Below are positions 22,661-61,062 of a stretch of 64,000 bases of DNA, one piece after another. The DNA is from an uncultured Pseudomonadota bacterium (lineage in GTDB: Bacteria > Oederibacteriota > Muellerivitia > Muellerivitales > Muellerivitaceae): NCBI GenBank assembly GCA_963770835.1, contig CAVYRH010000019.1, positions 288,001 to 352,000 on the forward strand, given 5' to 3'. Each line of letters starts with the position of its first letter. Within the stretch, counting starts at the first letter, position 1. The notes beneath the pieces were generated by a model. That model was not told the DNA's origin. It saw only the letters and a list, made by a program, of their open reading frames with translations, and did not search any database. A program made the position numbers and the translations under genes.

Positions 22661-22676
22661 TATGACCCGCGTCATG
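22661..22676 (+). promoter_or_regulatory. TATGA-N6-TCATA-type site upstream of hoxE
   Basis: TATGACCCGCGTCATG (1 mismatch), 77 nt before the start. Confidence 0.6.
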
Positions 22677-22753
22677 CAAAAAAATCCAAAAAACCCGCAT
22701 AAGTAATGCGTCGGCAAGAAAGCGCCTCATTCATTGCCAAGGAAGGAAATACC

Positions 22754-23266
22754 ATGATTCCTGCAACCGCCAGCCCAACGGCTGAGATCAAGAAAAGCGA
22801 CCCGCGCATCAAGCGCATCCTGGCCGTGATGAACGTCCAGGGCCGCAAGCCCGATTCGCTCATCCAGGTGCTCCACGCCACCCAGGAGCTCTTCGGCTAC
22901 CTGCCCAAACCGGTGATCGAGTTCATCGCCAAGGAACTGCGCATCCCCGCTTCCCGGGTCTACGGCGTGGTCACCTTCTACCACTTCTTCTCGTTGAAAC
23001 CCCAGGGCGAGCACAGCTGCGTGGTTTGCATGGGGACGGCTTGTTACGTGAAGGGCGCCCATCTCTTGATCGAGCAGATCGAGAAGGAATTCGGCGTCAA
23101 GCCGGGCGAAGTCACCAAGGACAACAAACTGGGCGTTCAGATCGCTCGCTGCATCGGATCCTGCGGCATGGCCCCGGCGGTGGTGATGGACGGCGAGGTT
23201 TTCGCCCGGGTAAAACCGGAGGAAATCGTGCCGAAGGTCAAAGCCAAAATGGGGGTAACAGCATGA
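22754..23266 (+). CDS. hoxE: Bidirectional hydrogenase diaphorase subunit HoxE (NuoE-like)
   Basis: VYGVVTFYHFF, CMGTAC and CIGSCG [2Fe-2S] ligands; first gene of the hox operon. Confidence 0.9.
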   Translation: MIPATASPTAEIKKSDPRIKRILAVMNVQGRKPDSLIQVLHATQELFGYLPKPVIEFIAKELRIPASRVYGVVTFYHFFSLKPQGEHSCVVCMGTACYVKGAHLLIEQIEKEFGVKPGEVTKDNKLGVQIARCIGSCGMAPAVVMDGEVFARVKPEEIVPKVKAKMGVTA

Positions 23267-24948
23267 ATTCGGACGCATTGAAGGAACTGCGGGAAAAACT
23301 GAAGGCCGAGCGTAACGCCAAGCCGAAGAAGGTCTGCGTCTGCATGGGCGCGGGGTGCATTTCTTCCGGCTCCATGCACACCCTGGAGAAGACCAAGGCG
23401 GCGGTCAAGGACGCCAACCTGACGGACGTGGAAGTCAAATCCGTCGGCTGCATGGGCGCCTGCAATCAGGGCCCCCTGGTGCAAATGATGCCCGAGGACG
23501 TGATGTACCAGAAAGTCAGCGGGGACGACGCGGCCAAGCTGGTCACCTCCCACCTGAAGGACCACAAGACGGTCGAAAAGATGCTGATCTTCTCGGACCA
23601 AAAGGCCAACGTGCCGCTCAAGTCCCAGGAAAATTCCTTCTTTAAAAAGCAGCGCAAGATCGTGCTGGAAAACTGCGGCGTCGTGGATCCCGAAAGCATC
23701 GAGGACTATATCTCCATCGGCGGCTACACCGCCCTCCAGAAGGCCTTGACCCAAATGTCGCGGGAAGAGGTCATCGGCGAGGTCAAGCAAAGCGGCATCC
23801 GCGGGCGCGGCGGCGCGGGTTTCCCCACCGGCACCAAGTGGGAAATGTCCTATAAGTTCGTGGGTGAGAGCAAATACCTGGTCTGTAACGGCGACGAGGG
23901 GGACCCCGGCGCCTTCATGGACCGCTCGGTTTTGGAAAGCGACCCCCACCGGGTTTTGGAAGGCATGATCCTGGGCGGCTACGCTGTCGGCGCCAACAAG
24001 GGCTTCGCTTACATAAGAGGGGAATACCCCCTCGCCATCTCGCGCTTCACCACCGCCATCCAAAAGGCCAAGAAGCTGGGCCTTTTGGGTAAGAACATCC
24101 TGGAGACCCAATTCTCCTTCGACGTGGAAATCCGCATCGGGGCCGGCGCCTTCGTCTGCGGCGAGGAAACGGCGCTCTTGGCCTCCATCGAAGGCAAGCG
24201 CGGAACCCCCCGCCCCCGGCCGCCCTTTCCGGCGGAAAAGGGGGTTTGGGGCATGCCCACCCTGATTAATAACGTAGAAACCTTCGCCAATATCGCCCCC
24301 ATTGTCGAACGGGGCGGCGAATGGTACGCCGCCATCGGCACTCCCAAGAGCACGGGCACCAAGGTTTTCGCGCTCTCGGGCCGCATCCTGAACACCGGCC
24401 TGGTGGAAATCCCGGTCGGGACCACCCTTCGCGACGTCATCTTCGAGATCGGCGGAGGCATCCCGGGCGGCAAGAAATTCAAGGCGGCCCAGACCGGCGG
24501 CCCCTCGGGCGGCTGTATCCCCGAGGCGCACCTGGACACGGCCTTGGATTACGAGGCCCTGGTGAAGCTGGGTTCCATCATGGGATCGGGGGGATTGATC
24601 GTCATGGATGAGACCTCCTGCATGCCCGACGTGGCCCGCTACTTCATGGAGTTCTGCATGGACGAGTCCTGCGGCAAGTGCATTCCCTGCCGCGTGGGCA
24701 CCAAGCAGATGCACCTGCTTTTGACCAAGATCTGCACCTTCCAGGCCACCGAGCGGGACTTGGAACTGCTGGAATCCCTGGCCCCCATGGTCAAGGAAAC
24801 CAGCCTTTGCGGGCTGGGCATGAGCGCCCCGAACCCGCTGCTTTCCACCCTGCGTTACTTCCGGGACGAGTACATCGCCCACGTGAAGGAGAAACGCTGC
24901 CCCTCCGGCGTCTGCAAGCCGGCCAAATCCTTAGTGGAGGTGCGCTGA
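23263..24948 (+). CDS. hoxF: Diaphorase subunit HoxF (NuoF-like, FMN/NAD-binding)
   Basis: GRGGAGFPTG, GAGAFVCGEET, SCGKCIPCRVG...CGLG; ATGA overlap with hoxE. Confidence 0.93.
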   Translation: MNSDALKELREKLKAERNAKPKKVCVCMGAGCISSGSMHTLEKTKAAVKDANLTDVEVKSVGCMGACNQGPLVQMMPEDVMYQKVSGDDAAKLVTSHLKDHKTVEKMLIFSDQKANVPLKSQENSFFKKQRKIVLENCGVVDPESIEDYISIGGYTALQKALTQMSREEVIGEVKQSGIRGRGGAGFPTGTKWEMSYKFVGESKYLVCNGDEGDPGAFMDRSVLESDPHRVLEGMILGGYAVGANKGFAYIRGEYPLAISRFTTAIQKAKKLGLLGKNILETQFSFDVEIRIGAGAFVCGEETALLASIEGKRGTPRPRPPFPAEKGVWGMPTLINNVETFANIAPIVERGGEWYAAIGTPKSTGTKVFALSGRILNTGLVEIPVGTTLRDVIFEIGGGIPGGKKFKAAQTGGPSGGCIPEAHLDTALDYEALVKLGSIMGSGGLIVMDETSCMPDVARYFMEFCMDESCGKCIPCRVGTKQMHLLLTKICTFQATERDLELLESLAPMVKETSLCGLGMSAPNPLLSTLRYFRDEYIAHVKEKRCPSGVCKPAKSLVEVR

Positions 24949-25655
24949 TGGGAACCCCCTTTACCTTGACGATTGACGGGAAGGACGTCCAGGCCGAACC
25001 GGGACAGTCGCTGTTGGACGTGTGCCGGAAGAACGAGATTCCCATTCCCACCCTCTGCCACATGGACGGCCTCTCCGAGGTCGGCGCCTGTAGGCTCTGC
25101 CTGGTAGAAATGGAAGGCACCCCCCGGCTTTTCCCCACCTGCGTGACCATGGCCGCGCCGGGCCAGAAGGTGCATACCAACACCGATAGGCTCCAGAAGC
25201 ACCGCCGCACCATCGTGGAGCTGCTCTTTTCCGAGCGCAACCACATCTGTTCCGTCTGCGTGGCCAATAAGAACTGCGAATTGCAGGATTTGGCCAAGTC
25301 GGTCGGGATGGAGCACGTGCGGCTTCCCTACCTGATGCCCGTGGTGGAAGTGGACGCTTCCCACCCCAAATACGTCATCGACCACAACCGCTGCGTGATG
25401 TGCACCCGCTGCGTGAGGGTCTGCGACGAAGTGGAGGGCGCCCAAGTTTGGGACGTCATGAGCCGCGGATTCAACTCCCGCATCATCTCGGGGTTCCACG
25501 ACCCCTGGGCCTCTTCCGACGCCTGCACCTGGTGCGGCAAATGCGTGATGGTGTGCCCCGTGGGGGCGCTGTGGCCCAAGGATGCGGCCCAAGGCAAGCT
25601 GTTGAAGCATCCGGACCTGGTCTCGGGTTTGGTCCAGAAAAGGAAAGAAAAATGA
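24948..25655 (+). CDS. hoxU: Diaphorase Fe-S subunit HoxU
   Basis: IPTLC..GACRLC, HICSVC, CVMCTRCVRVC, CTWCGKCVMVCP; TGATG overlap. Confidence 0.93.
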   Translation: MGTPFTLTIDGKDVQAEPGQSLLDVCRKNEIPIPTLCHMDGLSEVGACRLCLVEMEGTPRLFPTCVTMAAPGQKVHTNTDRLQKHRRTIVELLFSERNHICSVCVANKNCELQDLAKSVGMEHVRLPYLMPVVEVDASHPKYVIDHNRCVMCTRCVRVCDEVEGAQVWDVMSRGFNSRIISGFHDPWASSDACTWCGKCVMVCPVGALWPKDAAQGKLLKHPDLVSGLVQKRKEK

Positions 25656-26200
25656 GCAAGAAAAAGATCGCAACCGTTTGGCTGGCCGGCTGTTCCGGCT
25701 GCCATATGTCCCTCCTGGACATCGACGAGCGCCTGTTGGACGTGGTGGCCCTGGCCGACATCGTGAAAAGCCCGGTGGTGGACGGAAAAAACCTTCCCGA
25801 CGTGGATGTCACCCTGGTGGAAGGCGCTGTCTCCAGCGAGGAGCACGTGGAGGAATTGAAACACATCCGCGCCAAGAGCAAGTTCGTCGTGGCCTTTGGC
25901 GACTGCGCGGTGACGGCCAATGTGGCGTCGCTACGGAACCTGGTGGGGACCGAAGTAGCCTTGAAAAAGGCCTATGTGGAGCTGCCTTCCAACGTGCCCG
26001 GCAAGCTGCCGCCGGGCGACGGTAGCAAGGGGGTGTCGGTGCTTTTGCCGAGGGTGATGCCCCTGCACGAAGTGATCAAGATTGACTATTACATCCCCGG
26101 GTGCCCGCCGGACGCGGATAGGATTTTCGACATCCTTCTGGCGCTTTTGACCGACAAGACACCGGATCTCTCCAACGAAAGGAAGGCCTCCTATGGCTGA
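25652..26200 (+). CDS. hoxY: [NiFe]-hydrogenase small subunit HoxY
   Basis: WLAGCSGCHMS, GDCA and PGCPP; ATGA overlap. Confidence 0.93.
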   Translation: MSKKKIATVWLAGCSGCHMSLLDIDERLLDVVALADIVKSPVVDGKNLPDVDVTLVEGAVSSEEHVEELKHIRAKSKFVVAFGDCAVTANVASLRNLVGTEVALKKAYVELPSNVPGKLPPGDGSKGVSVLLPRVMPLHEVIKIDYYIPGCPPDADRIFDILLALLTDKTPDLSNERKASYG

Positions 26201-27626
26201 TCTCAAAGTCATCAAAATCAACCCCGTGACCCGCATCGAGGGCCACGCCAAGATTTCCCTCTTTTTGAACGACAAAAACGAGGTTTCGGACGCCCAGTTC
26301 CATGTGGACGAGTTCCGCGGCTTCGAGAAGTTCTGCGAGGGCCGGCTTTACACCGAGATGCCGGTCATTACGCCCCGCATCTGCGGCATCTGCCCCGTGT
26401 CCCACTCGATTGCCAGCGCCAAGGCTTGCGACGACATCCAGCGGGTAATGGTGCCCGAAACCGGCGTGAAGCTGCGCCGCCTGATCCAACTGGGCCAACT
26501 GCTCTCTTCCCACGCCTTAAGCTACTTCTACCTCTCGGCCCCCGACTTCCTTTTGGGTTGGGATTCGGACCCGGCCTTGAGGAACGTGGTGGGATTGGCC
26601 GCCAAGTTCCCTGACGTCGCCAAACGGGGCATCCGCCTGCGCAAGTTCGGGCAGGAGATCTCCCAGCACATCACGGGCAAGAAGATCCATACCAACGGCA
26701 TCATCGCCGGCGGCGTATCCGCCCCCTTGAAACCGGAAAGCCGCCAGGACTTGCTCGCCTGGGTCCCCGAAGCCATGGAGACCACCCTGATCGGCTTGAA
26801 GCTCCTCAAGGACTACATGGACGCCCACAAGGAGGAAGTGGAGAGCTTCGCGCCCGCCGAGACCCTGCATATGGGAATCGTCGGCCCCGACGGCGCCCAC
26901 GAAATGTATGACGGCAAGCTGCGCTGGGTGGGCCCGGACGGCAAGATCGTCAAGGACCAGGTCGACCCCCGGGAATACCTCACCTACATCGCCGAGATGC
27001 CGGTGGAGTACTCCTATCTGAAGTACCCCTACTACAAGCCCCTGGGCTACCCCCAGGGCATCTACCGGGTAGGCCCGCTGGCCCGCCTGAACATCGCCTC
27101 GAAGATGAAGACCCCCAAGGCCCAGAAGGAATTCGAGTCCTTCAAGAGCATCGGGAGGGGCCGCGCCGTCAACGGGACCTTCTATTACCACTACGCCCGC
27201 CTGATCGAGACCATCGCCTGCATCGAGGAGATCGAGATGCTCTTGAGCGATCCCAAAATCCTTTCCACCGACGTGCAAGCCGTGGCCGGAAGGAACCAGG
27301 AGGAAGGCGTCGGCTGCACCGAGGCCCCCCGGGGAACCCTCTTCCACCACTACAAGGTGGACAAGGGCGGCCAGTTGACCATGGTGAACCTGGTGATCGC
27401 CACCGGGCAGAACAACCCCTCCATGAACCGCTCGGTGCTGGACGTGGCCAAGCAATACGTGAAGGGCGCGGACGTGAAGGAAGGCGCCCTGAACCGCGTG
27501 GAAGCCGCCATCCGCTGCTACGACCCCTGCCTGTCCTGTTCCACCCACGCCATCGGCGCCATGCCCATGGTGGTGGAGATAAGGGACGCCAAGGGCGAAC
27601 TGGTGCGGACGATCGAAAGAAATTAA
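26193..27626 (+). CDS. hoxH: [NiFe]-hydrogenase large subunit HoxH (group 3d-type)
   Basis: TRIEGH, L1 RICGIC, L2 DPCLSCSTH plus a 25-aa cleavable tail. Confidence 0.95.
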   Translation: MADLKVIKINPVTRIEGHAKISLFLNDKNEVSDAQFHVDEFRGFEKFCEGRLYTEMPVITPRICGICPVSHSIASAKACDDIQRVMVPETGVKLRRLIQLGQLLSSHALSYFYLSAPDFLLGWDSDPALRNVVGLAAKFPDVAKRGIRLRKFGQEISQHITGKKIHTNGIIAGGVSAPLKPESRQDLLAWVPEAMETTLIGLKLLKDYMDAHKEEVESFAPAETLHMGIVGPDGAHEMYDGKLRWVGPDGKIVKDQVDPREYLTYIAEMPVEYSYLKYPYYKPLGYPQGIYRVGPLARLNIASKMKTPKAQKEFESFKSIGRGRAVNGTFYYHYARLIETIACIEEIEMLLSDPKILSTDVQAVAGRNQEEGVGCTEAPRGTLFHHYKVDKGGQLTMVNLVIATGQNNPSMNRSVLDVAKQYVKGADVKEGALNRVEAAIRCYDPCLSCSTHAIGAMPMVVEIRDAKGELVRTIERN

Positions 27627-29146: not shown

Positions 29147-29254
29147 AATATAGCTGGGTTTTAAAGATAAAACATGGGTATTGGGCCGCCCTGCAAGGCG
29201 GGAAATTCCGGCGAACGGTTTAAAACCCGGGACCGGTATTCGGGAGGTCGGGCA

Positions 29255-29743
29255 ATGGTTGACGCACCCAAGACTTTACTTTTAGGCCTGGGGAACGCCA
29301 CTCGCGGGGACGACGGAGCGGGTTGGGAGGTCGTGTGCTTGTTTGATTTCCTGCGCATCCCGGGACTGGAAACCCGTGTCGCCCCTCAATTGGGCCCGGA
29401 GCTCTTGGAGGAATGGGGTGGTTTCGACCGCGTGGTTTTCGTGGACGCCTCAATCGGCGAAGCGGAAGTGCGTTTGGAAAGGGTCGTGGAATCCGAAGCC
29501 ACTCCCGCCTCTTCCACCCATCATTTGAAACCCGAAACCCTTTTGCAGCTCTCCCGGGCGTTGAACACCCGTTGCCCGGAGCTTTATGTTTGCAGCGTCC
29601 CGGCCAGCAACTTTGAGTTCGGCGAACCTTTTTCCGCCACTACCCGGCGCAATATCCACCAGGCGGTCCGCCTCCTGATCCAATGGCTGACCGACGGCAA
29701 AGGTTACGTCAACACAGTGGAGGCCCAGCTGCAGCAGCCGTAA
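29255..29743 (+). CDS. hoxW: Hydrogenase maturation protease (HoxW-like)
   Basis: GLGNATRGDDGAG, VVFVDA and STHH; GGAGG RBS. Confidence 0.85.
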   Translation: MVDAPKTLLLGLGNATRGDDGAGWEVVCLFDFLRIPGLETRVAPQLGPELLEEWGGFDRVVFVDASIGEAEVRLERVVESEATPASSTHHLKPETLLQLSRALNTRCPELYVCSVPASNFEFGEPFSATTRRNIHQAVRLLIQWLTDGKGYVNTVEAQLQQP

Positions 29744-29777
29744 CAACCCGAAGGGTTGATTGTTTTGGAGGTGCGCC

Positions 29778-30122
29778 ATGCACGAGCATAAATTTACCGA
29801 TCAAATCGTCCAGTCGGTCCTGGACGAACTTCACCAGCACCCGGAGGCCAAGCCCAAAAAGGTCGAGGTCATCGTGGGCGAGGTGTTCCACTTGGAGGAG
29901 GAAAGTGTGCGGATGCACTTCAACCTTCTCACCCAAGGGACGCCCTTGGAGGACGTGGAACTGAGCCTTCAGCAGGAACCCCTGGAAGTCACCTGCCGCG
30001 ACTGCGGCGAAACCGGCCCCGTGGAGGACCACCACCTTCCCACCTGCAACGCCTGCGGCTCCCTGGAGGTCAAAACCGTCCGGGGAAACCACGTGGACGT
30101 GCGACTGATGGAAGCGCCGTAA
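29778..30122 (+). CDS. hypA: Hydrogenase nickel metallochaperone HypA
   Basis: N-terminal MHE; CRDC and CNAC Zn motifs. Confidence 0.93.
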   Translation: MHEHKFTDQIVQSVLDELHQHPEAKPKKVEVIVGEVFHLEEESVRMHFNLLTQGTPLEDVELSLQQEPLEVTCRDCGETGPVEDHHLPTCNACGSLEVKTVRGNHVDVRLMEAP

Positions 30123-30148
30123 AAGCGAAGAGCTTTTGAGGTTCTAAA

Positions 30149-32485
30149 ATGAAAAAATTACCCCTGGTCTTCATAACCGACCGTCCGCCCCTCCACAAGC
30201 GCCAGTTGCTGAGCATCCTTGTGCGCGGCGTGGTGCAGGGCGTGGGCTTCCGCCCCTTCGTGTACCGCCTGGCGAAGGAACTGAGCCTGACCGGCTATGT
30301 CCTGAACGGCCCCCAGGGCGTGGAAATCGAGGCCGAGGGCAACATCCGGGCCCTGAGGGAATTTTTAAAGCTCCTCAAGTCCGACAAGCCTCCCCTGGCG
30401 ATGCTGGAAAGCGTGGATTCCCACCTGATGCCCCCCAAGGGTTACCGGGATTTCCGCATCCAGGAAAGCAGCGAAAAAGGCGCCAAAACTGTCCTCATCC
30501 TGCCCGACGTGGCCATCTGCCCGGACTGCCTCTCTGACATACTGGACCCCCAAAACCGCCGTTACCTCTACCCCTTCACCAACTGCACCAATTGCGGGCC
30601 CCGTTTTTCCATCATCGAAAGGCTTCCCTACGACCGGCTCCACACCACCATGAGGCGTTTCATGATGTGCCCCGAGTGCCGGAGGGAATACATGGACCCG
30701 GCCAACCGCCGCTTCCACGCCCAGCCCAACGCCTGCCCCCTCTGCGGACCCCAACTGGAGTTTTGGGACGGGGCGGGGAAGGTGCTATCCGTCCGCCAGG
30801 CGGCGCTGGAGCAGGCCGTGAAGGCCTTGAAATGGGGCGGCATCGTGGCCCTGAAGGGCCTGGGGGGCTTCCAACTCCTCTGCGACGCGCGCAACGAAAA
30901 AGCGGTCGCCGAACTTCGCGCCCGCAAAAGGCGCGAGGCCAAGCCCCTTGCCGTCATGTTCCCCGGTCTGCTGGCGCTCCAAGCCGCCTGCCTGGTGAGC
31001 CAGGCGGAGGAAAAACTTCTTACCTCTCCCGAGGCTCCCATTGTTCTTTTAAAAAGGAAACCCCTCGATATCACCTTAGCTGCTTCGGTGGCACCGGGAA
31101 ACCTCCAGTTGGGCGCTTTCCTTCCCTATACACCGCTCCACTTCATTCTCATGGATAAACTGGGAATCCCCGTGGTGGCCACCAGCGGCAACCTTTCCGA
31201 CGAACCCATCTGCACCGACGGGGCCGAAGCACTGGAGCGCCTGAGGGGCATCGCGGATTTCTTCCTCACCCACAACCGGCCCGTCGCGCGGCCCATGGAT
31301 GATTCGGTAGCCCGGGTGGTCTCGGGCGAGGTGCAGGTGATCCGCCGGGCCCGGGGTTACGCCCCCCTGCCCGTGCACCTGGCCTCGGGCGGCCCCACCG
31401 TGCTGGCCCTGGGCGGTTACTTGAAGAACACCGTGGCCCTGGCCAAGGAAGGCCGGGTATTCGTGAGCCAGCACCTGGGCGACCTGGGGACTGTGGCTTC
31501 GCTGGAGGCTTTCGAGAAATCCCTCACCGACCTGCCCCGGCTTTATGAGGCGGCGCCGGAAGCCGTGGCCTGCGACCTGCACCCCGACTACCCTTCCACC
31601 CGCCGCGCGCAGGAAATGAACCTGCCGGTGATTTTCGTCCAGCACCACGTGGCCCACGTTTTTTCCGTCCTGGCCGAGAACCACCTGGAAGGCCCCGTCT
31701 TGGGGGTCGCCTGGGACGGCACGGGCTGGGGCACCGACCACACCATCTGGGGCGGCGAATTTTTCACCGTGGACAAGGAATGCGTCCAGCGCTTCGCCCA
31801 CCTGCGGCCTTTCCCCCTGGTCGGAGGCGACAAGGCGGCAAAGGAATCCCGCCGTCCGGCCCTGGGGATTCTCTATGAGCTCTACCGGGAAACGGCTTTT
31901 GGCTTGGACTTCCCCACTGTCGGGGCCTTCGTTCCGCAGGAGCTTTCGGTGTTGGGGAAGATGCTTTCTTTCCCGGAACGCACGATGACTTCCAGCATGG
32001 GACGCCTCTTCGACGCCGTGGCTTCCCTTACCGGGCTTTGCCAGAAGAGCCGCTTCGAGGGCGAAGCCGCCATGGCCCTGGAATTCGCGCTGGAGGATGT
32101 CCAAACCGAAGAGGCCTATCCCCTTCCCTTGGTTTTCCATGGCGGAACGGCCCTGCTGGATTGGGAACCCTTGGTCCGGCAATTGTTGGAGGATGTGAGA
32201 CAGCGGACGTCCGTTTCCATGATTTCCTGGCGTTTTCACAACGCCCTGGTGGAAGGGCTCATGAAGGTGGCCGCCAAGGCCGGACTGGAACAGATCGCCT
32301 TATCGGGCGGCTGTTTCCAGAACCGCGCCTTGGCCGAAATGGCGGTCCACCGCCTGAAAGCCGAAGGCTTCCGGCCCTATTGGCAGAAGCAGGTTCCGCC
32401 TAATGACGGCGGGCTATCGTTAGGACAAGCCGCTTATGCCCGATGGAAGTTGCAGGTGGAAAAAAATAACGGGAGACTTCGTTAG
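30149..32485 (+). CDS. hypF: Carbamoyltransferase HypF
   Basis: GVVQGVGFRP, CxxC Zn fingers, KGLGGF, QHHVAH, PPNDGG. Confidence 0.97.
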   Translation: MKKLPLVFITDRPPLHKRQLLSILVRGVVQGVGFRPFVYRLAKELSLTGYVLNGPQGVEIEAEGNIRALREFLKLLKSDKPPLAMLESVDSHLMPPKGYRDFRIQESSEKGAKTVLILPDVAICPDCLSDILDPQNRRYLYPFTNCTNCGPRFSIIERLPYDRLHTTMRRFMMCPECRREYMDPANRRFHAQPNACPLCGPQLEFWDGAGKVLSVRQAALEQAVKALKWGGIVALKGLGGFQLLCDARNEKAVAELRARKRREAKPLAVMFPGLLALQAACLVSQAEEKLLTSPEAPIVLLKRKPLDITLAASVAPGNLQLGAFLPYTPLHFILMDKLGIPVVATSGNLSDEPICTDGAEALERLRGIADFFLTHNRPVARPMDDSVARVVSGEVQVIRRARGYAPLPVHLASGGPTVLALGGYLKNTVALAKEGRVFVSQHLGDLGTVASLEAFEKSLTDLPRLYEAAPEAVACDLHPDYPSTRRAQEMNLPVIFVQHHVAHVFSVLAENHLEGPVLGVAWDGTGWGTDHTIWGGEFFTVDKECVQRFAHLRPFPLVGGDKAAKESRRPALGILYELYRETAFGLDFPTVGAFVPQELSVLGKMLSFPERTMTSSMGRLFDAVASLTGLCQKSRFEGEAAMALEFALEDVQTEEAYPLPLVFHGGTALLDWEPLVRQLLEDVRQRTSVSMISWRFHNALVEGLMKVAAKAGLEQIALSGGCFQNRALAEMAVHRLKAEGFRPYWQKQVPPNDGGLSLGQAAYARWKLQVEKNNGRLR

Positions 32486-42607: not shown

Positions 42608-42623
42608 TATGACAGGTGTCATA
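42608..42623 (-). promoter_or_regulatory. Perfect TATGA-N6-TCATA site for the acetate-CoA ligase gene
   Basis: TATGACAGGTGTCATA; minus-strand TAGATT starts at 42586. Confidence 0.65.
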
Positions 42624-42785: not shown

Positions 42786-43034
42786 ATGTGTTTAGCAGTG
42801 CCAGGAAAAATTGTCAGCATCACGGGCGGGGAGCCCCTTTTCCTAAAGGGAAAAGTGGATTTTGGCGGCGTGGCCCGCGAAGTTTCCTTGGCCTGCCTGC
42901 CCGAAGCCCGGGTGGGCGATTACGTGATCGTGCACGTGGGCATGGCCATCAGCTTGCTGGATGAAGCGGAGGCCCGGCGCACCCTTGAGGACTTGGAAAC
43001 CCTTCGGGAGTTTTCCTCCAGAGGCACGCCATGA
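42786..43034 (+). CDS. hypC: Hydrogenase maturation chaperone HypC
   Basis: MCLAVPG and [19 protein letters not shown]. Confidence 0.96.
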
Positions 43035-44146
43035 AATACGTGGACGAATACCGCGACGGCCGGGCCTGCCTGGAGACGGCCGAAGCCATCAAGAAAATCA
43101 CCACCCGTCCCTGGGTACTCATGGAAATTTGCGGCGGCCAAACCCATTCCATCGCCCGTTATGGGCTGGAGAACCTCCTGCCCCCCCAAATCTCCCTGGT
43201 TCACGGCCCCGGCTGCCCGGTCTGCGTGACGCCCCTGGAAGTGATCGACAAGGCGGTGGAAATTGCCGCGCGCCCAGGCGTGATCTTTTGTTCCTTCGGC
43301 GACATGATGCGGGTGCCGGGCAGCAGGAAGGACCTGCTCTCGGTGAAGGCCCAGGGCGGCGAAGTACGTCTGGTTTACTCGCCCCTGGATGCCGTCAAGA
43401 TCGCCCAACAAAACCCCGCCAAGCAAGTGGTCTTTTTCGCGGTGGGCTTCGAGACCACCGCGCCCGCTAACGCCATGGCGGTCCGGCAGGCGAAGGCCCT
43501 TAAGCTCTCAAATTTTTTCATTCTCGTTTCCCACGTGCTGGTGCCTCCGGCCATGGAGGCCATTCTTTCCTCGCCCGACAACCGCGTTCAGGCATTTCTG
43601 GCCGCCGGCCACGTCTGCACCGTCATGGGTTTCGGCCAATACCCGCCGATCGCCGAAAAATATAAAGTTCCCATCGTCGTCACTGGCTTCGAACCCCTGG
43701 ACGTGATGTTGGGCGTTTACTACTGCGTCAAGCAGTTGGAGGAAGGCCGCCACGTTGTGGAAAACCGATACAAGCGTTCGGTGCGGCCCGAAGGAAATAC
43801 CGGAGCTTTGGAAACCATCGGCGAGGTTTTTGTGGTGGTCACCCGTAAATGGCGGGGGATCGGGGCAATTCCCAACAGCGGCTGGGCCCTCAACGAAAAA
43901 TACCGTGCCTTCGACGCCGAAAGGCGTTTCGGGGTCGCCCAGGTGACGGCCGAGGAAAGCCCCGACTGTATCAGCGGGCAGATCTTGCGGGGCTTGAAGA
44001 AACCCGTCCAATGCCCAGCCTTCAACACCCTCTGTACCCCCGAACACCCCTTGGGCGCTCCCATGGTTTCTACCGAGGGCGCTTGCTCGGCTTATTACCG
44101 CTACCGGCGGCATGAAGTCCCACCCGTCGTGGAGGTGGCGTTATGA
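43031..44146 (+). CDS. hypD: Hydrogenase maturation protein HypD
   Basis: [30 protein letters not shown]. Confidence 0.97.
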
Positions 44147-45216
44147 GATCTTTTCTCGAACTCTTCAACGACCAGCCGGGGAACCCGCGCTTCAAAGTCA
44201 CCGGCCTTTTTCTCTTATTAATAGCCTTCAACCTTGCCGCCTGGGCCTGGGCTTGGGCCGCCTTTGCCCATTCCCCCGCCCTTTTGGCCATGGCGCTCCT
44301 GGCTTACCTTTTTGGCCTTCGCCATGCCCTGGACGCCGACCACCTGGCCGCCATCGACAACGTGGTGCGCAAGCTTTCTCAAAGGGGCGGCAAGCCCTAT
44401 TCCACCGGCTTCTTCTTTTCCCTGGGCCATTCCACGGTAGTCGTGCTGGCCACCATGATGGTGGCGAGCCTGGCTTCGGCCTTGAAGGGCCGCCTGGAAA
44501 AAGCCGGCGAGATCGGGGGCTTGGTGGGGACGGGGGTCTCGGCTTTCTTCCTTCTCTTCATCGCCTTCGCCAATTTCTTCATCCTCAAGGCGGTTTGGGG
44601 CGCCTTTCAAAGGGCCCGGCGCGGCGCGGCCGTGGATGAAGAGGATCTGAACGCCCTTCTTGCGGGCCGGGGTTTCTTCACGCATCTGTTGAAGTCCCTC
44701 TTCGACCTGGTCTCCGAAAGCCGCCACCTTTACTGGGTGGGATTCCTCTTTGGGTTGGGTTTTGACACCGCTACCGAAGTGGGCCTTCTGGGCCTCTCGG
44801 CCACCCAGGCGGTCAACGGTCTTCCGGGCGCCTCTATTATGATCTTCCCCACCCTCTTTACGGCGGGCATGGCGCTTGTTGACACCGCCGACAGCGTACT
44901 CATGGTGAAGGTCTACGGCTGGGCCTTCCAAGCGCCCTTGCGCAAGCTTTGGTACAACCTGACGCTCACTTCCTTTTCCATCCTCTTGGCACTCGTCATC
45001 GGCGGCGCGGAGGCCTTGAGCCTATTGTCCAATCACTTGGGATTAACCGGCGGGATTTGGGACTCGGTATCCTGGCTTGGAAACCTCCAGGGAAGCTTCG
45101 GCCTGGCGGCTGTTGGAATTTTCTTTTTGGGCTGGATGATTTCGGCCTTCTGGTATCGGTGGAGTGGATATGAAAAACAAGTTCCAGAAAATTTTTCCTT
45201 GGAGAAGAAGCCATGA
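44143..45216 (+). CDS. High-affinity Ni/Co transporter, NiCoT (HoxN/HupN/NixA) family
   Basis: [31 protein letters not shown]. Confidence 0.95.
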
Positions 45217-46265
45217 ACCCCACCAAGCTTAACTTGGATTGCCCCCTGCCTTTCACCGATTACGACCGGGTGTTGCTGGCCCACGGCGGTGGGGGAACCC
45301 TCACCCAACAGCTCATCGAAAAGATCTTCCTGCCCGCCTTCGGCAACGCGCCCCTTTTGAAAAAACACGATTCGGCGGTGGTCCCCCTGGCCGGCCAGGC
45401 GGTGGCCATGACCACCGATTCCTACGTGGTCAAGCCGCTCTTTTTCCCCGGCGGGGACATCGGGAAGCTGGCGGTCACCGGCACGGTGAACGACCTGGCC
45501 ATGGCGGGTGCCCAGCCCCTTTATTTGAGCGCGGGCTTCATTTTGGAGGAGGGCCTGCCGATGGAGACTCTTTGGCGGGTGGTCCAATCCATGAGCGAGG
45601 CCGCCTGGGAGGCGGGCGTGGCCATCGTCACGGGGGACACCAAGGTGGTGGACAAGGGCAAGGGTGACGGCATTTTCATCAATACGGCGGGCATCGGCGT
45701 GGTGCGGCCCGGCCTGGATATCTCTCCCTCGTCGGTGAAACCCGGCGACGCCATCATCCTGAGCGGCGACGTGGGACGGCACGGAATCGCCATCATGGCG
45801 GCCCGGGAGGGCCTGGAATTTGAGACCAAACTCGAAAGCGACTGCGCTTTTCTTCACGAACCCGTGCTTTCCCTTTTGGAGGGGGGTGTAGGCATTCATT
45901 GCCTCAGGGACTTGACTCGTGGGGGCCTGGCCTCAGCCTTGAACGAGATCGCCCAGGCTTCCGGCAACCCGATCCAGGTATCCGAATCGGAGATCCCCGT
46001 GCGGGAGGAAGTGAGTTCGGCCTGCGAAATCCTGGGATTGGACCCCTTTTACGTCGCCAACGAGGGGCGCTTCATTTGCATCCTGCCTGAGGCGGAAGTA
46101 GGACGGGCCCTGGCGGTGTTGAAGGCCCACCCGGTCAGCCGCGACGCGCGGGTGATCGGCCGGGTGCTTCCCGGCCCCGGCAAGTCGGTACGGTTGAAGA
46201 GCGTCACCGGGTCCTTGCGGGTGATGGACCTTTTAAGCGGCGAGCAGTTGCCGCGGATTTGTTGA
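45213..46265 (+). CDS. hypE: Carbamoyl dehydratase HypE
   Basis: AHGGGG, TTDSYVV, GDTKVV, RDLTRGG, C-terminal LPRIC. Confidence 0.97.
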
Positions 46266-50097: not shown

Positions 50098-50241
50098 CCT
50101 CTTGAACCACAGAGTTCACCCCGCTTTGCATGATTCGAATACGAATCATGCGGGGTGGTACACGGAGTACACAGAGGAAGGCATAAGAATTTCCTTTAAT
50201 TTAGGTTGTCTTACTCCGTGAACTCTGTGTCCTCTGTGGTT
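50098..50241. repeat. ACAGAG-type palindromic repeat, copy 2, with an inserted 41-nt hairpin
   Basis: CCTCTTGAACCACAGAG...CTCTGTGTCCTCTGTGGTT; insert at 50117-50157. Confidence 0.75.
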
Positions 50242-50290: not shown

Positions 50291-50306
50291 GCTGATCCCG
50301 ATCATA
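50291..50306 (+). promoter_or_regulatory. Degenerate TATGA-N6-TCATA site upstream of nifJ
   Basis: GCTGATCCCGATCATA (2 mismatches); TATCGT at 50328. Confidence 0.5.
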
Positions 50307-50384: not shown

Positions 50385-53300
50385 ATGTCCGGTTCAACCA
50401 TGCGTACCTTGGATGCCAATGAAGCCGCCGCTTACGTCGCTTTCCGCTTGAGCGAAATTTTCTGCATCTTCCCGATCACTCCCTCCTCCCCCATGGCTGA
50501 GTGGGTGGACGACTGGGCCGCCGCCGGCAAAGTCAACCTTTGGGGTGCGGCGCCCTCTATCATGGAAATGCAAAGCGAAGGCGGGGCGGCCGGCGCCCTG
50601 CACGGGGCCCTCCAGGGAGGCGCCCTGGCGGCGACCTTCACGGCCTCCCAAGGCCTCCTGCTCATGATCCCCGACATGTACAAAATCGCCGGGGAGCTCA
50701 CCCCCTGCGTCTTCCACGTCACGGCCCGCACCTTGGCCACCCACGCCCTTTCCATTTTTGGGGACCACTCGGATGTCATGGCCGTCCGGGGAACGGGTTT
50801 CGCGCTTCTGGCCTCCAACTCGGTGCAGGAAGCCGCCGACATGGCCCTGGTATCCCATGCCGCCACCCTGGAAACCCGGGTTCCTTTCCTCCACTTCTTC
50901 GACGGCTTCCGGACCTCCCATGAGGTGGCTAAGGCACTGCTCCCCACCGACGAGGAGATCTCAGCCGTCATCTCGGAAAGCGGCATTCGGGAACACCGCC
51001 TCCGTGCTCTGACCCCCGACCGCCCTCATTTAAGCGGCACCGCCCAGAACCCGGATGTCTTCTTCCAGGCCCGGGAAGCCAGCAACTCCTTTTACCAAGT
51101 CATTCCCGGGAAGGTCCAGGAAATCATGGACCGGCTGTCCGCCACTTGCGGGCGGGAGTACAAAATTTTCGAATACCATGGCGCGCCCGACGCCCGGCAG
51201 GTGATGGTGATCATGGGATCGGGGGCAGAGGTGGCCCACGAAACCGTAGATGCCCTGAATGCGGCCGGGGAAAAAGTGGGCGTGTTGAAGGTTAGATTGT
51301 TCAGGCCCTTTTCCGCCCGGCATTTCGTGGAAGCCCTGCCCCCCACGGTCCGCACCATCGGCGTGCTGGACCGCACCAAGGAACCCGGGGCCATGGGCGA
51401 ACCCCTTTACCAGGACGTCATCACGGCCATCGAGGAAACGGATGACTCGGGCCTCTTGCGTTACCATCCTAAGGTGGTGGGCGGCCGCTACGGCCTTTCC
51501 TCCAAGGAATTCACCCCCGCCATGGTCAAGGGCGTCTTCGACAACCTGAAAAAACAGGCGCCGAAGAACCACTTCACTATCGGTATCAAGGACGACGTCA
51601 CCCACACTTCCCTTTCCTACGAACCCAAGTTCACCACCGAAACCGACGACGTCTTCCGGGCGCTTTTTTACGGGCTCGGCGCCGACGGGACCGTCGGGGC
51701 CAACAAGAACACCATTAAGATCATCGGCGAGAACACGTCCAATTGGGCCCAGGGCTATTTTGTTTACGATTCCAAGAAGTCCGGCGCCATGACCGTTTCG
51801 CACTTACGGTTCGGGCCCCGGCCTATCCGCTCCGCCTACCTCATTACCCGGGCCCATTTCATCGGATGCCACCAGCCCCAGTTCATCGACCGTTATGACA
51901 TGCTGTCCAACCTGATGGAAGGCGGGACATTCCTCTTCAACACCTCCGTGGCGCCGGAAATAGTCTGGGAGTCCTTGCCCCGGCACGTCCAGGAACAGCT
52001 TCAACGGAAGAAAGCCAACTTCTACGTCATCGACGCCGACAAAGTGGCGGAAGAGGCGGGAATGGGCGGGCGCATCAACACCATCATGCAGGCCTGCTTT
52101 TTCGCCATTTCGGGCGTGCTTCCCAAGGAAGCGGCCTTGGAGGCCATCCGCAAATCCATCCGCAAGACCTACCAGAAGAAGGGTGAAAAGGTGGTGGAGG
52201 CCAATTTGAAGGCCGTGGACCATACCCTGGCCCACCTTCACAAGGTGGAGGTGGCAGGCCTTCATTTGAACGGCACCCCTTGGCGCCATGCCGTTTCCCA
52301 GGATGCGCCGGACTTCGTCAAGAACGTCCTGGGACGCATCATCGAGGGCCGGGGCGACGACTTGCCGGTTTCGGTCATGCCCGTGGACGGGACCTTCCCG
52401 ACTGGCACCTCACGCTACGAGAAACGCAACATCGCCCGGGAAGTCCCGGTATGGAACCCCGATTTGTGTATCCAATGCTCCCGCTGCGCCTTGGTTTGCC
52501 CCCATGCGGCAATTCGCGTGAACGCCTATGACGCCAAGACCGCCGCGGCCGCCCCGACGGCCTTTAAGTCGATGGACGCCCGGCACAAGGATTGGAAAGG
52601 CTGGAAATTTACCGTTCAGGTGGCTCCTGAGGATTGCACCGGCTGTACCCTCTGCGTGGATATCTGCCCAGGCAAGAGCAAGGAAGGCCCCACGGTCAAC
52701 GCTTTGCAAATGGTCTCCCAATCCCTGGTTTTGGAGAAGGAAAAGATCAATTGGGATTATTTCTTGACCCTGCCTACGCCCAACCCCGCCACGTTGAACC
52801 CTAAGCTGGTCATGCACCAGCAGACCCTGCCGCCCTATTTCGAATTTTCCGGGGCCTGTTCGGGCTGCGGCGAAACTCCCTACGTGAAGCTGGCTTCCCA
52901 ACTGGCCGGGGACCGAATGCTGGTGGCCAATGCCACGGGCTGTTCTTCCATTTACGGCGGGAACCTGCCCACCACCCCCTGGACCCAGGACAAAGCGGGC
53001 CGGGGACCGGCTTGGTCCAATTCCCTCTTTGAGGACAACGCCGAATTCGGGCTGGGACTGCGACTCTCGGTGGACCTTTTGAAAAAACGGGCCATCCAGC
53101 TTTTGAAGAACCTGGAGCCGGTGATCGGCAACGAAGTGGCGTCTCCCCTGCTTTCCGGGGACCAAAACACACCGGCGGGTATCGAATCCCAGCGCCAAAG
53201 GGTCAAGAAACTGAAGGAAGTCCTGGCCCGCAACGCCACCCCGGCGGCCGCCGAGCTTTTGAGCTTGGCCGACTACCTGGTGGACAAGAGTGTCTGGATC

Positions 53301-53969
53301 ATCGGCGGCGACGGCTGGGCCTATGACATCGGCTACGGCGGCTTGGACCACGTGCTGGCCTCTGGCCGCAATGTCAAGGTGCTAGTGCTGGACACGGAGG
53401 TTTATTCGAATACTGGCGGCCAAATGTCCAAGTCCACCCCCCTTTCCGCCGTGGCGCGCTTCGCGGCGGGCGGAAAGAAGACACCCAAGAAGGACCTGGG
53501 CCTTTTGGCCATGGGATACGGATCCATTTACGTAGCCTCCATCGCCCTGGGCGCCAACGACTCCCAAACCTTGAGGGCCTTCCAGGAGGCGCTTTCCTAC
53601 GAAGGCCCTTCCCTCATCATTGCCTACAGCCATTGCATTGCCCATGGCATCCGCATGGAGGACGGGTTCAAGCGGCAGAAGATGGCGGTCCAGACAGGCC
53701 AGTGGCTGCTCTACCGCTACGATCCCCGTCTGAAGGCCCAAGGGAAAAACCCGCTTCAGTTGGATTCACCCGAACCCAACCTGCCCCTGGAGCAATTCCT
53801 CACGACTGAAAACCGGTTCCGGGTTCTCTTGGACAGCCATCCCCAGGAAGCAAAGGAACTGGTGGCGGAGGCCCAGAAGGAAGTGCAGGAAAGGTACCGC
53901 CGTTACCACAATATGGCCTATGGCCAGCCGCAGGCCAATAACCCGTCGCCCGCCACCGTGGCGGGCTAA
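50385..53969 (+). CDS. nifJ: Pyruvate:ferredoxin (flavodoxin) oxidoreductase, single-chain type
   Basis: PITPSS, SEGGAAG, DGFRTSHE, two CxxCxxCxxxCP, GACSGCGETPY, GGDGWAYDIG; AGGAGG RBS. Confidence 0.97.
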   Translation: MSGSTMRTLDANEAAAYVAFRLSEIFCIFPITPSSPMAEWVDDWAAAGKVNLWGAAPSIMEMQSEGGAAGALHGALQGGALAATFTASQGLLLMIPDMYKIAGELTPCVFHVTARTLATHALSIFGDHSDVMAVRGTGFALLASNSVQEAADMALVSHAATLETRVPFLHFFDGFRTSHEVAKALLPTDEEISAVISESGIREHRLRALTPDRPHLSGTAQNPDVFFQAREASNSFYQVIPGKVQEIMDRLSATCGREYKIFEYHGAPDARQVMVIMGSGAEVAHETVDALNAAGEKVGVLKVRLFRPFSARHFVEALPPTVRTIGVLDRTKEPGAMGEPLYQDVITAIEETDDSGLLRYHPKVVGGRYGLSSKEFTPAMVKGVFDNLKKQAPKNHFTIGIKDDVTHTSLSYEPKFTTETDDVFRALFYGLGADGTVGANKNTIKIIGENTSNWAQGYFVYDSKKSGAMTVSHLRFGPRPIRSAYLITRAHFIGCHQPQFIDRYDMLSNLMEGGTFLFNTSVAPEIVWESLPRHVQEQLQRKKANFYVIDADKVAEEAGMGGRINTIMQACFFAISGVLPKEAALEAIRKSIRKTYQKKGEKVVEANLKAVDHTLAHLHKVEVAGLHLNGTPWRHAVSQDAPDFVKNVLGRIIEGRGDDLPVSVMPVDGTFPTGTSRYEKRNIAREVPVWNPDLCIQCSRCALVCPHAAIRVNAYDAKTAAAAPTAFKSMDARHKDWKGWKFTVQVAPEDCTGCTLCVDICPGKSKEGPTVNALQMVSQSLVLEKEKINWDYFLTLPTPNPATLNPKLVMHQQTLPPYFEFSGACSGCGETPYVKLASQLAGDRMLVANATGCSSIYGGNLPTTPWTQDKAGRGPAWSNSLFEDNAEFGLGLRLSVDLLKKRAIQLLKNLEPVIGNEVASPLLSGDQNTPAGIESQRQRVKKLKEVLARNATPAAAELLSLADYLVDKSVWIIGGDGWAYDIGYGGLDHVLASGRNVKVLVLDTEVYSNTGGQMSKSTPLSAVARFAAGGKKTPKKDLGLLAMGYGSIYVASIALGANDSQTLRAFQEALSYEGPSLIIAYSHCIAHGIRMEDGFKRQKMAVQTGQWLLYRYDPRLKAQGKNPLQLDSPEPNLPLEQFLTTENRFRVLLDSHPQEAKELVAEAQKEVQERYRRYHNMAYGQPQANNPSPATVAG

Positions 53970-53982
53970 AGAAAAGTCTTTC

Positions 53983-54074
53983 ACTACAGAGTTCACAGAG
54001 GTCACAGAGTAAGAATTTTTATGAAATTCTTAAGACCCCCTCTGTGTACTCTGTGAACTCTGTGGTTCAAGAGG
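53983..54074. repeat. ACAGAG-type palindromic repeat, copy 3 (opposite orientation)
   Basis: ACTACAGAGTTCACAGAGGTCACAGAG...CTCTGTGTACTCTGTGAACTCTGTGGTTCAAGAGG. Confidence 0.75.
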
Positions 54075-54091
54075 TTTTGTTAGGAGGAAAT

Positions 54092-55585
54092 ATGGAAACC
54101 AAAACCCAGTCATGGGCGTCCCAGCGGATCAATGAAAGCGAAGTGACCCCTTTCCTCGACGAGGGACGGGATTTCACCTCGACCCAAAGGGTCCTCGAGA
54201 ATTTGATCGAACCCCCGGAGCCCGATCCCCACCGGATTGAGGAAATCCTGGCGAAATCGCTCGACCTGAAGACCTTGGAGATGGAGGAACTGGCCGTTCT
54301 GTTGGCTGCCGAACCATCCAAGTGGAACGCCCGTTTCACGGAAACCGCCAGCCAGATCAAACGGAAGGTCTACGGCAACCGAGTGGTGGTTTTCGCTCCC
54401 CTCTACCTGGGAAGCAAGTGTGTCAACGCCTGCGTTTACTGCGGCTTCCGGAACGACAATTCGGCCGTCGAAAGGGTCGTTCTCAGCCAAGAGGAAGTGC
54501 GGAAGGAAGGCGAAGCACTGGCCGGAACCCTGGGTCACCGCCGGGTAACGGTGGTGACAGGCGAACACCCCGAAACCGACGTGGATTACCTGATCCGTTC
54601 CATCCAGACCCTTTACGGCGTGGAAATAAAAACCCGCACGGGACGGAAATCCGTCATCCGGCGCGTCAGCGTGACCGCGCCGCCCATGACCCAGGAGGAA
54701 CTGAGGCGCCTGAACGAGGCTGAGATCGGGGCCTACCAGGTCTTCCAGGAAACCTACCACCGGCCGACTTATAAGAAGGTTCACCCCCCCACCACGCCCA
54801 AAAGCAATTTCCTTTGGCGCCTCTACGCCCAACACCGGGCCATGGCCGCCGGGGTCTCCGACGTGGGACTGGGCGCCCTGTTCGGCCTTTACGACTGGCG
54901 TTATGAGGTCCTGGGCCTTTTGGCCCACGTGAGGGATTTGGAGGCCCGTTTTGGCATGGGCCCCCACAATATTTCCGTACCCCGCCTGGAACCGGCGGTC
55001 AACACGCCCTTCGCCGATAATCCTCCCGCCCAGGTTTCGGACGCCGATTTCCAGCGCATCGTCACCATCCTGCGCCTGGCCGTTCCTTACGTCGGCATCG
55101 TCGTCACCGCCCGGGAGACACCGGCCATCCGCACTCAGGCCCTGGAATGGGGCGCCACCCAAATGGACGCCTCCGCCCAGTGCGCGGTGGGCGGCTACGC
55201 GAAACAGCCGGCCCCCGGCGAGGGGGAAAAGCGCCGCCAATTCAGCCTTTCGGACGGCCGGAGCCTCCCCCAGTTCATCGGCGACTTGCTGGCGACGGGA
55301 CGCCTGCCGTCTTTCTGTACGGCGGGATTCCGCTGCGGCAGGACCGGCCAATGCCTGACCGAACGCCGGCAGTTGGAGCTGGAGGGGCCCTTTTGCCTCG
55401 TCAACTCGGTCCTGACTTTCAAGGAGTGGCTGGATGACTTCGGCCCCGAGGAAATGAAGCCCGCCTCCGAGAAGGCGATCCACCGTGAGATGGGGCTCAT
55501 CCGGAAGCACATGCCGCAGTTCTATCCGGTCTTCAAGGATGCTTATGACCGGCTGAACCAGGGCGAAAGCGACCTGTATTTTTAA
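54092..55585 (+). CDS. hydG: HydG-like radical SAM tyrosine lyase
   Basis: FAPLY..CVNACVYC, FQETYH, GPHNISVPR and C-terminal CX5CX19C; AGGAGG RBS. Confidence 0.85.
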   Translation: METKTQSWASQRINESEVTPFLDEGRDFTSTQRVLENLIEPPEPDPHRIEEILAKSLDLKTLEMEELAVLLAAEPSKWNARFTETASQIKRKVYGNRVVVFAPLYLGSKCVNACVYCGFRNDNSAVERVVLSQEEVRKEGEALAGTLGHRRVTVVTGEHPETDVDYLIRSIQTLYGVEIKTRTGRKSVIRRVSVTAPPMTQEELRRLNEAEIGAYQVFQETYHRPTYKKVHPPTTPKSNFLWRLYAQHRAMAAGVSDVGLGALFGLYDWRYEVLGLLAHVRDLEARFGMGPHNISVPRLEPAVNTPFADNPPAQVSDADFQRIVTILRLAVPYVGIVVTARETPAIRTQALEWGATQMDASAQCAVGGYAKQPAPGEGEKRRQFSLSDGRSLPQFIGDLLATGRLPSFCTAGFRCGRTGQCLTERRQLELEGPFCLVNSVLTFKEWLDDFGPEEMKPASEKAIHREMGLIRKHMPQFYPVFKDAYDRLNQGESDLYF

Positions 55586-57910: not shown

Positions 57911-57996
57911 TTTACTTCCCCCTTATTGAAGGAAAGGGACCTTGTGCGGTGTCATCCGCAGGGTCCCTTTCCTCTCTCTCCGTCAGAACGGCCGGC

Positions 57997-60552
<2,556 letters not shown>

Positions 60553-60633
60553 GACCCCATCTCCTCTCTAAGTTTTCTTTACTTTTCAGATTATCCTGCG
60601 ACTACCGGCTTCCAGGCCTGTTGCCACATCTTT

Positions 60634-61062
60634 TCAGGCCAGTTTTTTGATGATTGCCTCCACGGCTTGGTCGGCCCGATGCCGGGCCTCCTCGGTTATA
60701 CCCGTTCCCGGTGTAAAATCCTCCCCCAGGATGGTGCAGACGAAGGCGTTGGTTTTGATCCCATAGAGCATTTCGGACAGGTGTGTCACCAATCCGGGTA
60801 CCAGGGCGTGGGACATAGCGATGGAAACATCCCCCAAGATCGGCTGGACCGGGATCATTTGCATATCCGCCACCTGGACGCCCGCGTCGATAAAGATCAC
60901 GGGGCTGTAGCGGTGGATGTCGGGGACCAATTCCAGGGGAAGGTTGTTAAAAATACGGGTTTCCACGTTCGGAAGGTCGGCTTCCGCAACCCTTTCGGCG
61001 GCGTAAACCCCTATCCCATCGTCACCGCATTTGGGATTTCCGTAACCCACCACTAGTTTCAT
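60634..61062 (-). CDS. Second hydrogenase maturation protease
   Basis: VVGYGNPKCGDDGIG, IFIDA and MSH; GAGG RBS before ATG 61062. Confidence 0.85.
   Translation of the reverse strand: MKLVVGYGNPKCGDDGIGVYAAERVAEADLPNVETRIFNNLPLELVPDIHRYSPVIFIDAGVQVADMQMIPVQPILGDVSIAMSHALVPGLVTHLSEMLYGIKTNAFVCTILGEDFTPGTGITEEARHRADQAVEAIIKKLA

Follow-up and report, generated by a model that had tools for sequence, protein, structure and literature searches.

The window, the 64,000-nucleotide stretch of DNA analysed here, carries a hydG gene behind nifJ, together with the hox and hyp genes of a [NiFe] hydrogenase (Table 1). The genome bearing this hydG, G000, is 96.4% complete and belongs to the group FCPU426; other G and L numbers denote genomes and loci of relatives, and "orphan" denotes a HydG in a genome in which no [FeFe] hydrogenase genes were found. 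A spacer of 122 nt separates nifJ from hydG, whose ATG start lies 4 nt downstream of an AGGAGG site (54082-54087) and whose GC and GC3 contents are similar to those of the neighbouring genes. The sequence-only reading of this DNA had placed the gene behind nifJ, which profile TIGR02176 confirms, and the order recurs in two further contigs, so that it is found in 3/3 clade members with context (G000, L076 and G064). CACAGAG-type hairpins flank nifJ on both sides (50105-50240 and 53977-54072), the strict form occurring 13 times genome-wide, and a CACCAAG variant occupies the corresponding place in L076. Scans for sigma-70 promoters and terminators gave nothing exceeding chance. A second unit (57050-61095, minus strand), made up of genes for another hydrogenase protease and a sodium-pumping pyrophosphatase together with a moeB/thiF-like gene, faces the nifJ-hydG-adk unit, with the same order in L076; the moeB/thiF-like gene (57050-57910) was considered as a member of the hydG unit and rejected because it lies on the opposite strand.

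Table 1. Genes, protein motifs and DNA elements at the locus (positions within the window).
Feature	Position	Strand	Evidence
TGAY-N4-RTCA box upstream of hoxEFUYH	22662..22675	.	motif scan
hoxEFUYH, sole [NiFe] hydrogenase of G000	22706..27626	+	family profiles
hydrogenase protease, hypA, hypF	29174..32485	+	family profiles
TGAY-N4-RTCA box between hypC and divergent acyl-CoA synthetase gene	42609..42622	.	motif scan
hypC, hypD, NiCoT nickel transporter, hypE (complete HypCDE scaffold set)	42786..46265	+	family profiles
TGAY-N4-RTCA palindromic box upstream of nifJ (loose form)	50292..50305	.	motif scan
nifJ, pyruvate:ferredoxin oxidoreductase (PFOR; thiamine-diphosphate enzyme), first gene of the unit	50385..53969	+	TIGR02176
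Intergenic repeat hairpin nifJ/hydG, no U-tract	53977..54072	.	z -7.35; genome-wide repeat type, 13 copies in G000
Orphan hydG, radical SAM tyrosine lyase with C-terminal auxiliary-cluster domain, 497 aa	54092..55585	+	TIGR03955 above cut-off, AlphaFold model
CX3CX2C radical SAM cluster motif, C110/C114/C117 (residues 110-117)	54419..54442	+	kept in 16/16 orphan rows
RRVSVT strand with S193 and T195	54659..54676	+	alignment; barrel strand E191-195 in model
GPH (residues 290-292, His292), then clade-specific N293	54959..54970	+	alignment
CX5CX19C auxiliary [4Fe-4S] ligands C409/C415/C435 (residues 409-435)	55316..55396	+	motif, alignment
adk, adenylate kinase, downstream of hydG, likewise in L076	55685..56338	+	family profile, L076 gene order

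The product of this gene is a HydG by sequence and fold, and by sequence it is not a ThiH. Specifically, it passes the HydG profile TIGR03955 with 387.8 bits (cut-off 312.15) and misses the ThiH profile TIGR02351 with 253.7 bits (cut-off 380), in agreement with the earlier assignment to HydG rather than ThiH. An AlphaFold model built from a 61-row alignment reaches a pLDDT of 91, with low confidence only in the loop 411-430, and its top PDB match is T. italicus HydG (4WCX; TM 0.87/0.95, rmsd 2.1). The model and the motif search indicate a full TIM barrel carrying the radical SAM CX3CX2C motif, and CX3CX2C, GPH and CX5CX19C all lie where the sequence-only reading had named them. The GPH histidine is present in 111/111 canonical HydG rows and 16/16 orphan rows, and in 0/13 ThiH; in G000 it is His292, which we take to be the dangler-iron ligand. 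The CX5CX19C motif is present as claimed but is not unusual: PMC9431212 names it as a HydG motif, i.e. an ordinary variant, and it occurs in 68/111 canonical rows, including those of G059 and G039, in both of which hydG lies between hydF and hydE. Within this segment, the clade changes Y413F and M423T alter otherwise invariant positions. Among the three stretches that had been singled out as divergent, RRVSVT alone affects invariant residues, whereas GVSDVG and PYVG fall outside the positions conserved in at least 90% of rows, and PYVG also occurs in the G039 protein.

No [FeFe] hydrogenase large subunit HydA was found in the G000 genome (control of the HydA search positive in 2/14), and no HydE or HydF scored above cut-off there, in agreement with tblastn searches using the G059 genes. 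The claim that the window holds no hydA, hydE or hydF is therefore borne out and extends to the whole 96.4% complete genome, in which no complete set was found elsewhere and no hypX either. HypX is a formyl-THF decarbonylase that provides CO for [NiFe] maturation under oxic conditions and is found in hyp operons; neither G000 nor any of the family genomes (31/31) has a HypX, all formyltransferase frames being of PurN or Fmt size. HypD, HypE and HypF are all present in G000, as is an 82-aa HypC. A limited search for longer proteins related to HypC yielded 11, with no fusion of HypC to a radical SAM enzyme among them. On the thiamine side, G000 has thiG and no ThiH, together with two ThiO matches above cut-off, one of which is 78% identical to the thiO adjoining thiG in G051. 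As a separate observation, tblastn and phmmer searches with the HypB of G050, a query that finds the G048 copy, detected no hypB in G000 (window 29174-46265 and whole genome), despite the presence of hypA, C, D, E and F and an intact HoxH.

The promoter motif that had been described as common to the nifJ-hydG unit, hox and hyp can be written as TGAY-N4-RTCA, and it is enriched in intergenic DNA. In G000, the strict form occurs 48 times between genes against 10.2 expected (20 shuffles, maximum 18), and the loose form, which is needed to include the nifJ site, occurs 102 times against 48.7 in shuffles. The box keeps its position upstream of nifJ in L076 and G064, and a weaker copy lies upstream of hydG in G050 and L075. 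Judging from its shape, it is likely a CRP/FNR-type anoxia box, and it marks a broad regulon that is not restricted to hydrogenase genes. A match 341 nt upstream of thiC falls inside an apparent uncalled gene and was set aside as chance. The gene for a fusion protein of ADP-forming acyl-CoA synthetase and GNAT domain (39772-42558, minus strand) shares its box with hypC, and pgk (27757-29031, plus strand) lies inside the hox cluster; PFOR, Hox, this fusion protein and pgk form a compact fermentation island in the window.

HydG is patchily distributed around G000. It is found in 5/31 family genomes, of which G059 alone has HydA and still carries hydA-hydF-hydG-hydE, and it is missing from 3/3 same-genus genomes and from 26/30 other family genomes. 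The G000 protein belongs to a clade of four proteins (P0001-P0004; 66-100% identity, support 100) on a stem branch of 0.73. All clade rows (5/5) are altered at seven sites that are conserved in 95-100% of the 111 canonical HydGs, namely K150R, N193S, N195T, T214A, T293N, Y413F and M423T. In the alignment to 7PD1 and 4WCX, T195 takes the position of ThiH E158, the tyrosine-carboxylate contact according to PMC9046217, whose ThiH numbering is used here. In the AlphaFold model, residues 193, 214 and 293 lie on barrel strands and would point toward the barrel end that leads to the second site. The tyrosine-binding arginines equivalent to ThiH R300 and R306 are kept in orphan HydG, and the channel gate is Phe/Phe as in HydG, not Tyr/Tyr as in ThiH. 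The remaining ThiH tyrosine-site positions (E158, T299, S318 and S321) hold T195, A340, D359 and A362 in G000; A340 and D359 are normal for its HydG branch and A362 is private, an Ala at the S321 phenolate site being found in G000 alone. Taken together, the G000 HydG stands outside the functional context of the HydG family and has departed from several of its invariant residues.

One explanation for these changes is that substrate or product has changed (for example to p-cresol, glyoxylate, cyanide or another Fe-carbonyl), in the service of some other role in anoxic metabolism or signalling. The long stem of the G000 clade, in which at least seven invariant sites changed, including the substrate-carboxylate position N195T, and which is followed by normal conservation, would fit such a shift, as would the fact that neither thi nor hyp genes consistently adjoin hydG. 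On the other hand, both tyrosine-binding arginines and all cluster ligands are kept, and no partner gene is conserved beside the orphans. We regard a new substrate or product as improbable, placing it behind a role in CO supply and ahead of simple decay, which are considered below.

Orphan HydGs also occur beyond the relatives of G000. A pattern requiring a residue other than Asn at position 193 matched 11 loci in a search of 185,579 species genomes and a further 6 in metagenomes. Of the 11 loci, 10 were placed in genomes, three in FCPU426 and seven in Pirellulales/Thermoguttaceae, and HydA is absent in 10/10. The orphan count leaves out G189, G283 (HydG in two pieces) and locus L071; G189 was rejected because its thiG hardly differs from the one in the HydA-bearing G226, so that its lack of HydA is probably an assembly gap. 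Two more metagenome HydGs with Ser193 (L074 and L078) stand outside the genome-based counts. Position 193 is Asn in 111/111 canonical HydGs and Ser in 16/16 orphan rows and 9/13 ThiH. Within FCPU426, G050 and G052 carry a sister type of the G000 HydG (joined at support 93) with N193S and G213A. In Pirellulales, the orphans fall in the CX2CX22C branch of HydG, share G213A with G050 and G052, and have kept hydG without the neighbouring hydE and hydF that L168 has. A single origin of the Pirellulales and FCPU426 orphans is rejected (AU p 3e-57), and by this phylogenetic evidence orphan HydGs with the Asn193-to-Ser change arose at least twice, once in each group. That both groups retained HydG and altered it in the same way suggests that the enzyme has a second function.

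Ser193 is not the mark of every HydA-less HydG, since G018 (90% complete) has kept a HydG with Asn193 and has no HydA match; its Asn-type hydG lies beside sugar-nucleotide genes (L204, G018:C150:1-1335). Additionally, a second HydG type, recognized by CTAGYREG, has no second auxiliary cysteine at either of the known positions and lies away from hydE and hydF (L163-L166, in G164, G199, G231 and G147), among genes that we take to be NifB/NifX-like together with a P-loop ATPase.

The patchy occurrence of hydG could also mean that it is a relic, a slowly decaying HydG left over from an [FeFe]-hydrogenase system that has been lost, surviving in an anaerobic operon by chance. The family member that retains the full hydA-hydF-hydG-hydE set, the absence of HydG from most of the family, an internal stop in the G064 copy, a frameshift in the G099 copy, and, within one pair, a dN/dS of 0.16 for hydG against 0.09 for nifJ and 0.13 for adk are all in line with decay. 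However, dN/dS lies between 0.08 and 0.23 across all 21 orphan pairs, similar to the 0.08-0.26 measured for 15 pairs of canonical Thermoguttaceae HydGs, the ratios being rough because dS is near saturation in several pairs. Low-GC sets of canonical HydG yielded values of 0.02-0.04 or had reached saturation. Moreover, the open frame is preserved across 66-75% identity, the protein cluster of G064 holds three full-length members against one truncated, and the identical substitution was fixed twice. Judged by these substitution ratios, orphan hydG is under purifying selection and is not decaying, and we consider a relic the least probable of the explanations weighed here.

We propose that the intact HydG of G000 was kept after the hydrogenase and its partner maturases were lost, and serves as an oxygen-independent source of dehydroglycine for thiamine in place of ThiH, a reading to which we give a probability of roughly 0.4. 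Under anoxia, a CRP/FNR-type regulator would turn on nifJ-hydG together with hox, hyp and the acyl-CoA synthetase gene, in connection with fermentation and H2 release. PMC9046217 describes ThiO as O2-dependent; because ThiO requires O2, HydG would take over under anoxia and cleave tyrosine in the manner of ThiH. Changes in the channel and at the second site (S193, T195, A214, N293, F413 and T423) would let dehydroglycine, or the glyoxylate and ammonia formed from it, out to ThiG, the escaped dehydroglycine would not be split to CO and CN-, and thiamine cofactor would thereby be supplied to PFOR.

Several observations favour this role in thiamine synthesis. G000 has ThiG and no ThiH, which leaves the O2-dependent ThiO and no other source of dehydroglycine for anoxic conditions, and all 11 orphan-bearing genomes (11/11) have ThiG and lack ThiH. 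Since [NiFe] or hypD genes are likewise present in all 11, co-occurrence by itself does not decide the matter. Ser193 is the common ThiH residue and arose twice. As reported in PMC10114646, HydG lacking its C-terminal domain yields mainly 2-iminoacetate, and orphans show somewhat lower conservation of this domain, with 26/80 invariant columns versus 38/80, against 128/306 versus 133/306 in the barrel (p 0.076). ThiO is missing from 2/31 genomes of the family, G059, which also has no ThiG, and the orphan-bearing G052; ThiG is near-universal in this family (29/31), and its co-occurrence with HydG there therefore says little.

The Thermoguttaceae, sampled as 201 genomes with ThiH inferred from extra matches (E 1e-33 to 1e-56) that are rare in ThiG-less genomes (6/48), allow gene loss to be followed more closely. 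Of the 35 HydA-less genomes, 16 have ThiH only, 9 have HydG (6 intact, 3 in pieces) and 10 have neither, and intact HydG together with ThiH occurs in 0/35. ThiO above cut-off was found in 0/201 (9 candidates scored per genome), so the orphans there have no other known dehydroglycine source. ThiO-like matches in 8 genomes were below cut-off and were rejected; the two whose surroundings were examined lie in what is presumably a hydroxyproline-use cluster. Among ThiG-bearing genomes, ThiH is missing in 50/106 with intact HydG versus 7/29 without (uncorrected p 0.03; 18 genomes with partial HydG excluded). A thiG tree of 90/153 ThiG genomes (27/29 HydA-less; 63 HydA-bearing, hand-chosen) resolves the Thermoguttaceae orphans as one event and contains some 11-12 separate lineages that lack HydA and have ThiH, none of them with HydG, as well as four lineages with neither HydA nor ThiH, one of which kept HydG and three of which did not. 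A tree-aware test in independent pairs was not significant (median p 0.25). The five canonical HydGs nearest to the Pirellulales orphan lineage come from genomes with HydA and ThiG and no ThiH match, so the loss of ThiH may precede the orphan state. As a side observation, 44 Thermoguttaceae genomes with HydA, intact HydG and ThiG have no ThiH-level match and no ThiO above cut-off; ordinary HydG may supply dehydroglycine in them, or another route may exist.

Other observations speak against HydG as a replacement for ThiH. All orphan rows (16/16) retain His292 and the three auxiliary cysteines, which is hard to explain with an idle second site, and the C-terminal domain with these cysteines caps the barrel end that is the proposed exit for dehydroglycine in ThiH (PMC9046217). 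The gate is that of HydG, and ThiH E158 has not been restored. No thi genes lie beside hydG at any orphan locus. Additionally, 9/14 PFOR-bearing family genomes have ThiG and neither ThiH nor HydG, the HydA-less ThiH-less lineages G188, G228 and G250/G294 have no HydG, and G268 lacks HydG although it falls inside the orphan clade. Overall, the gene-loss profile leans to thiamine, since the orphan genomes, with a ThiG that is always present and a ThiH that is always missing, fit it better than they fit a link to hyp.

The kept ligands in turn favour the proposal of the sequence-only reading, in which HydG may have been repurposed under anoxia so that tyrosine-derived CO, or an Fe-CO species, reaches the HypCD scaffold that serves Hox. 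They are retained although the FCPU426 orphans alone span a tree length of about 2.8 changes per site, and a second site that still works would favour CO/CN- as output. In line with this, [NiFe] or hypD genes accompany the orphans in 11/11 genomes, as compared with 11/31 in the family of G000, and G052 has a [NiFe] hydrogenase yet no nifJ match; the regulatory box common to the hydG unit, hox and hyp and the lack of HypX throughout the family also fit. PMC12134894 treats the anoxic CO source for the [NiFe] cofactor as open and states that about 10 nM free CO enters the cofactor, outcompeting the endogenous precursor, and free CO release by HydG is reported in PMC10114646.

However, phylogenetic profiling of orphan hydG did not single out hyp: 7/11 [NiFe] family genomes have neither HydG nor HypX, and HydG is also missing from 19/28 Thermoguttaceae that have HypD and lack HydA, so that these mature their [NiFe] enzymes in its absence. 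Because most HydA-less [NiFe] relatives have lost hydG, HydG is no general CO source. The hox and hyp genes do not adjoin hydG at any Pirellulales locus or in G050, G052 or L075; HypCDEF is complete in G000, which has no HydE-like partner; invariant residues of the CO/CN cavity are changed; and the constant absence of ThiH is left unexplained. A nickel link was also considered, because nikR, NiCoT and TonB-receptor genes precede hydG in G050 and a similar receptor gene ends before nifJ in L076; it was rejected as a conserved link, the cassette lying on another contig in G000 (C2:227147-230902, its NiCoT gene split by a frame change) and being absent before hydG in G052 and L075. The labels LarA-like, aspartase-like, TonB receptor and NikR for neighbours in relatives' loci are presumptive and come from a look at the sequences. 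Thus, selection, intact ligands of the CO/CN site and [NiFe] genes in every orphan genome uphold part of the proposal, while hyp is not singled out. We consider recruitment for CO unlikely, although it is the foremost of the alternatives, and it is correspondingly doubtful that a stand-alone HydG, freed twice, makes the anoxic CO ligand of [NiFe] hydrogenase, which would render it the first enzyme named for this step and a direct biochemical link between the two hydrogenase families. The thiamine and CO roles need not be mutually exclusive.

HydG has been regarded as a marker with one meaning, the maturation of [FeFe] hydrogenase, and the literature searched, with most subscription journals outside its scope, holds no report of a lone or repurposed HydG. 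Here, two unrelated lineages have kept a selected HydG after hydrogenase loss, with the same change in the dehydroglycine channel, and the natural Asn-to-Ser variants flag a residue that may control the coupling of HydG's two active sites. If HydG stands in for ThiH, this would explain many ThiG genomes without ThiH or ThiO, such as the 44 HydA-bearing Thermoguttaceae, and would show how HydG and ThiH interconvert; if it supplies CO, this would answer in part the question of the anoxic CO ligand. Either outcome would be new biochemistry.

Like HypX, the G000 protein would on the CO reading act as a dedicated CO donor for HypCD; unlike HypX, it is an unrelated protein with an unrelated substrate, and its gene does not travel with hyp. 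With canonical HydG (T. italicus 4WCX; Carboxydothermus hydrogenoformans 4RTB; TIGR03955) it shares the full fold, the radical SAM motif, the dangler His, the three auxiliary cysteines, the Phe/Phe gate and the tyrosine-binding arginines. It differs from canonical HydG in that the genome has no HydA, HydE or HydF, the gene lies behind nifJ, the second cysteine is shifted (a known variant), and invariant channel and lid residues are changed. Distinct from ThiH (2-iminoacetate synthase; Thermosinus carboxydivorans 7PD1; TIGR02351), which has about 370 residues and no auxiliary domain, it has 497 residues with a 90-residue auxiliary-cluster domain and the dangler His, scores below the ThiH cut-off, lacks E158 and the Tyr/Tyr gate, and is encoded outside a thi operon. 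With ThiH it nevertheless shares, by homology, the chemistry of tyrosine cleavage, and also Ser193, and it fills the genomic gap of a bacterium that has ThiG and no ThiH.
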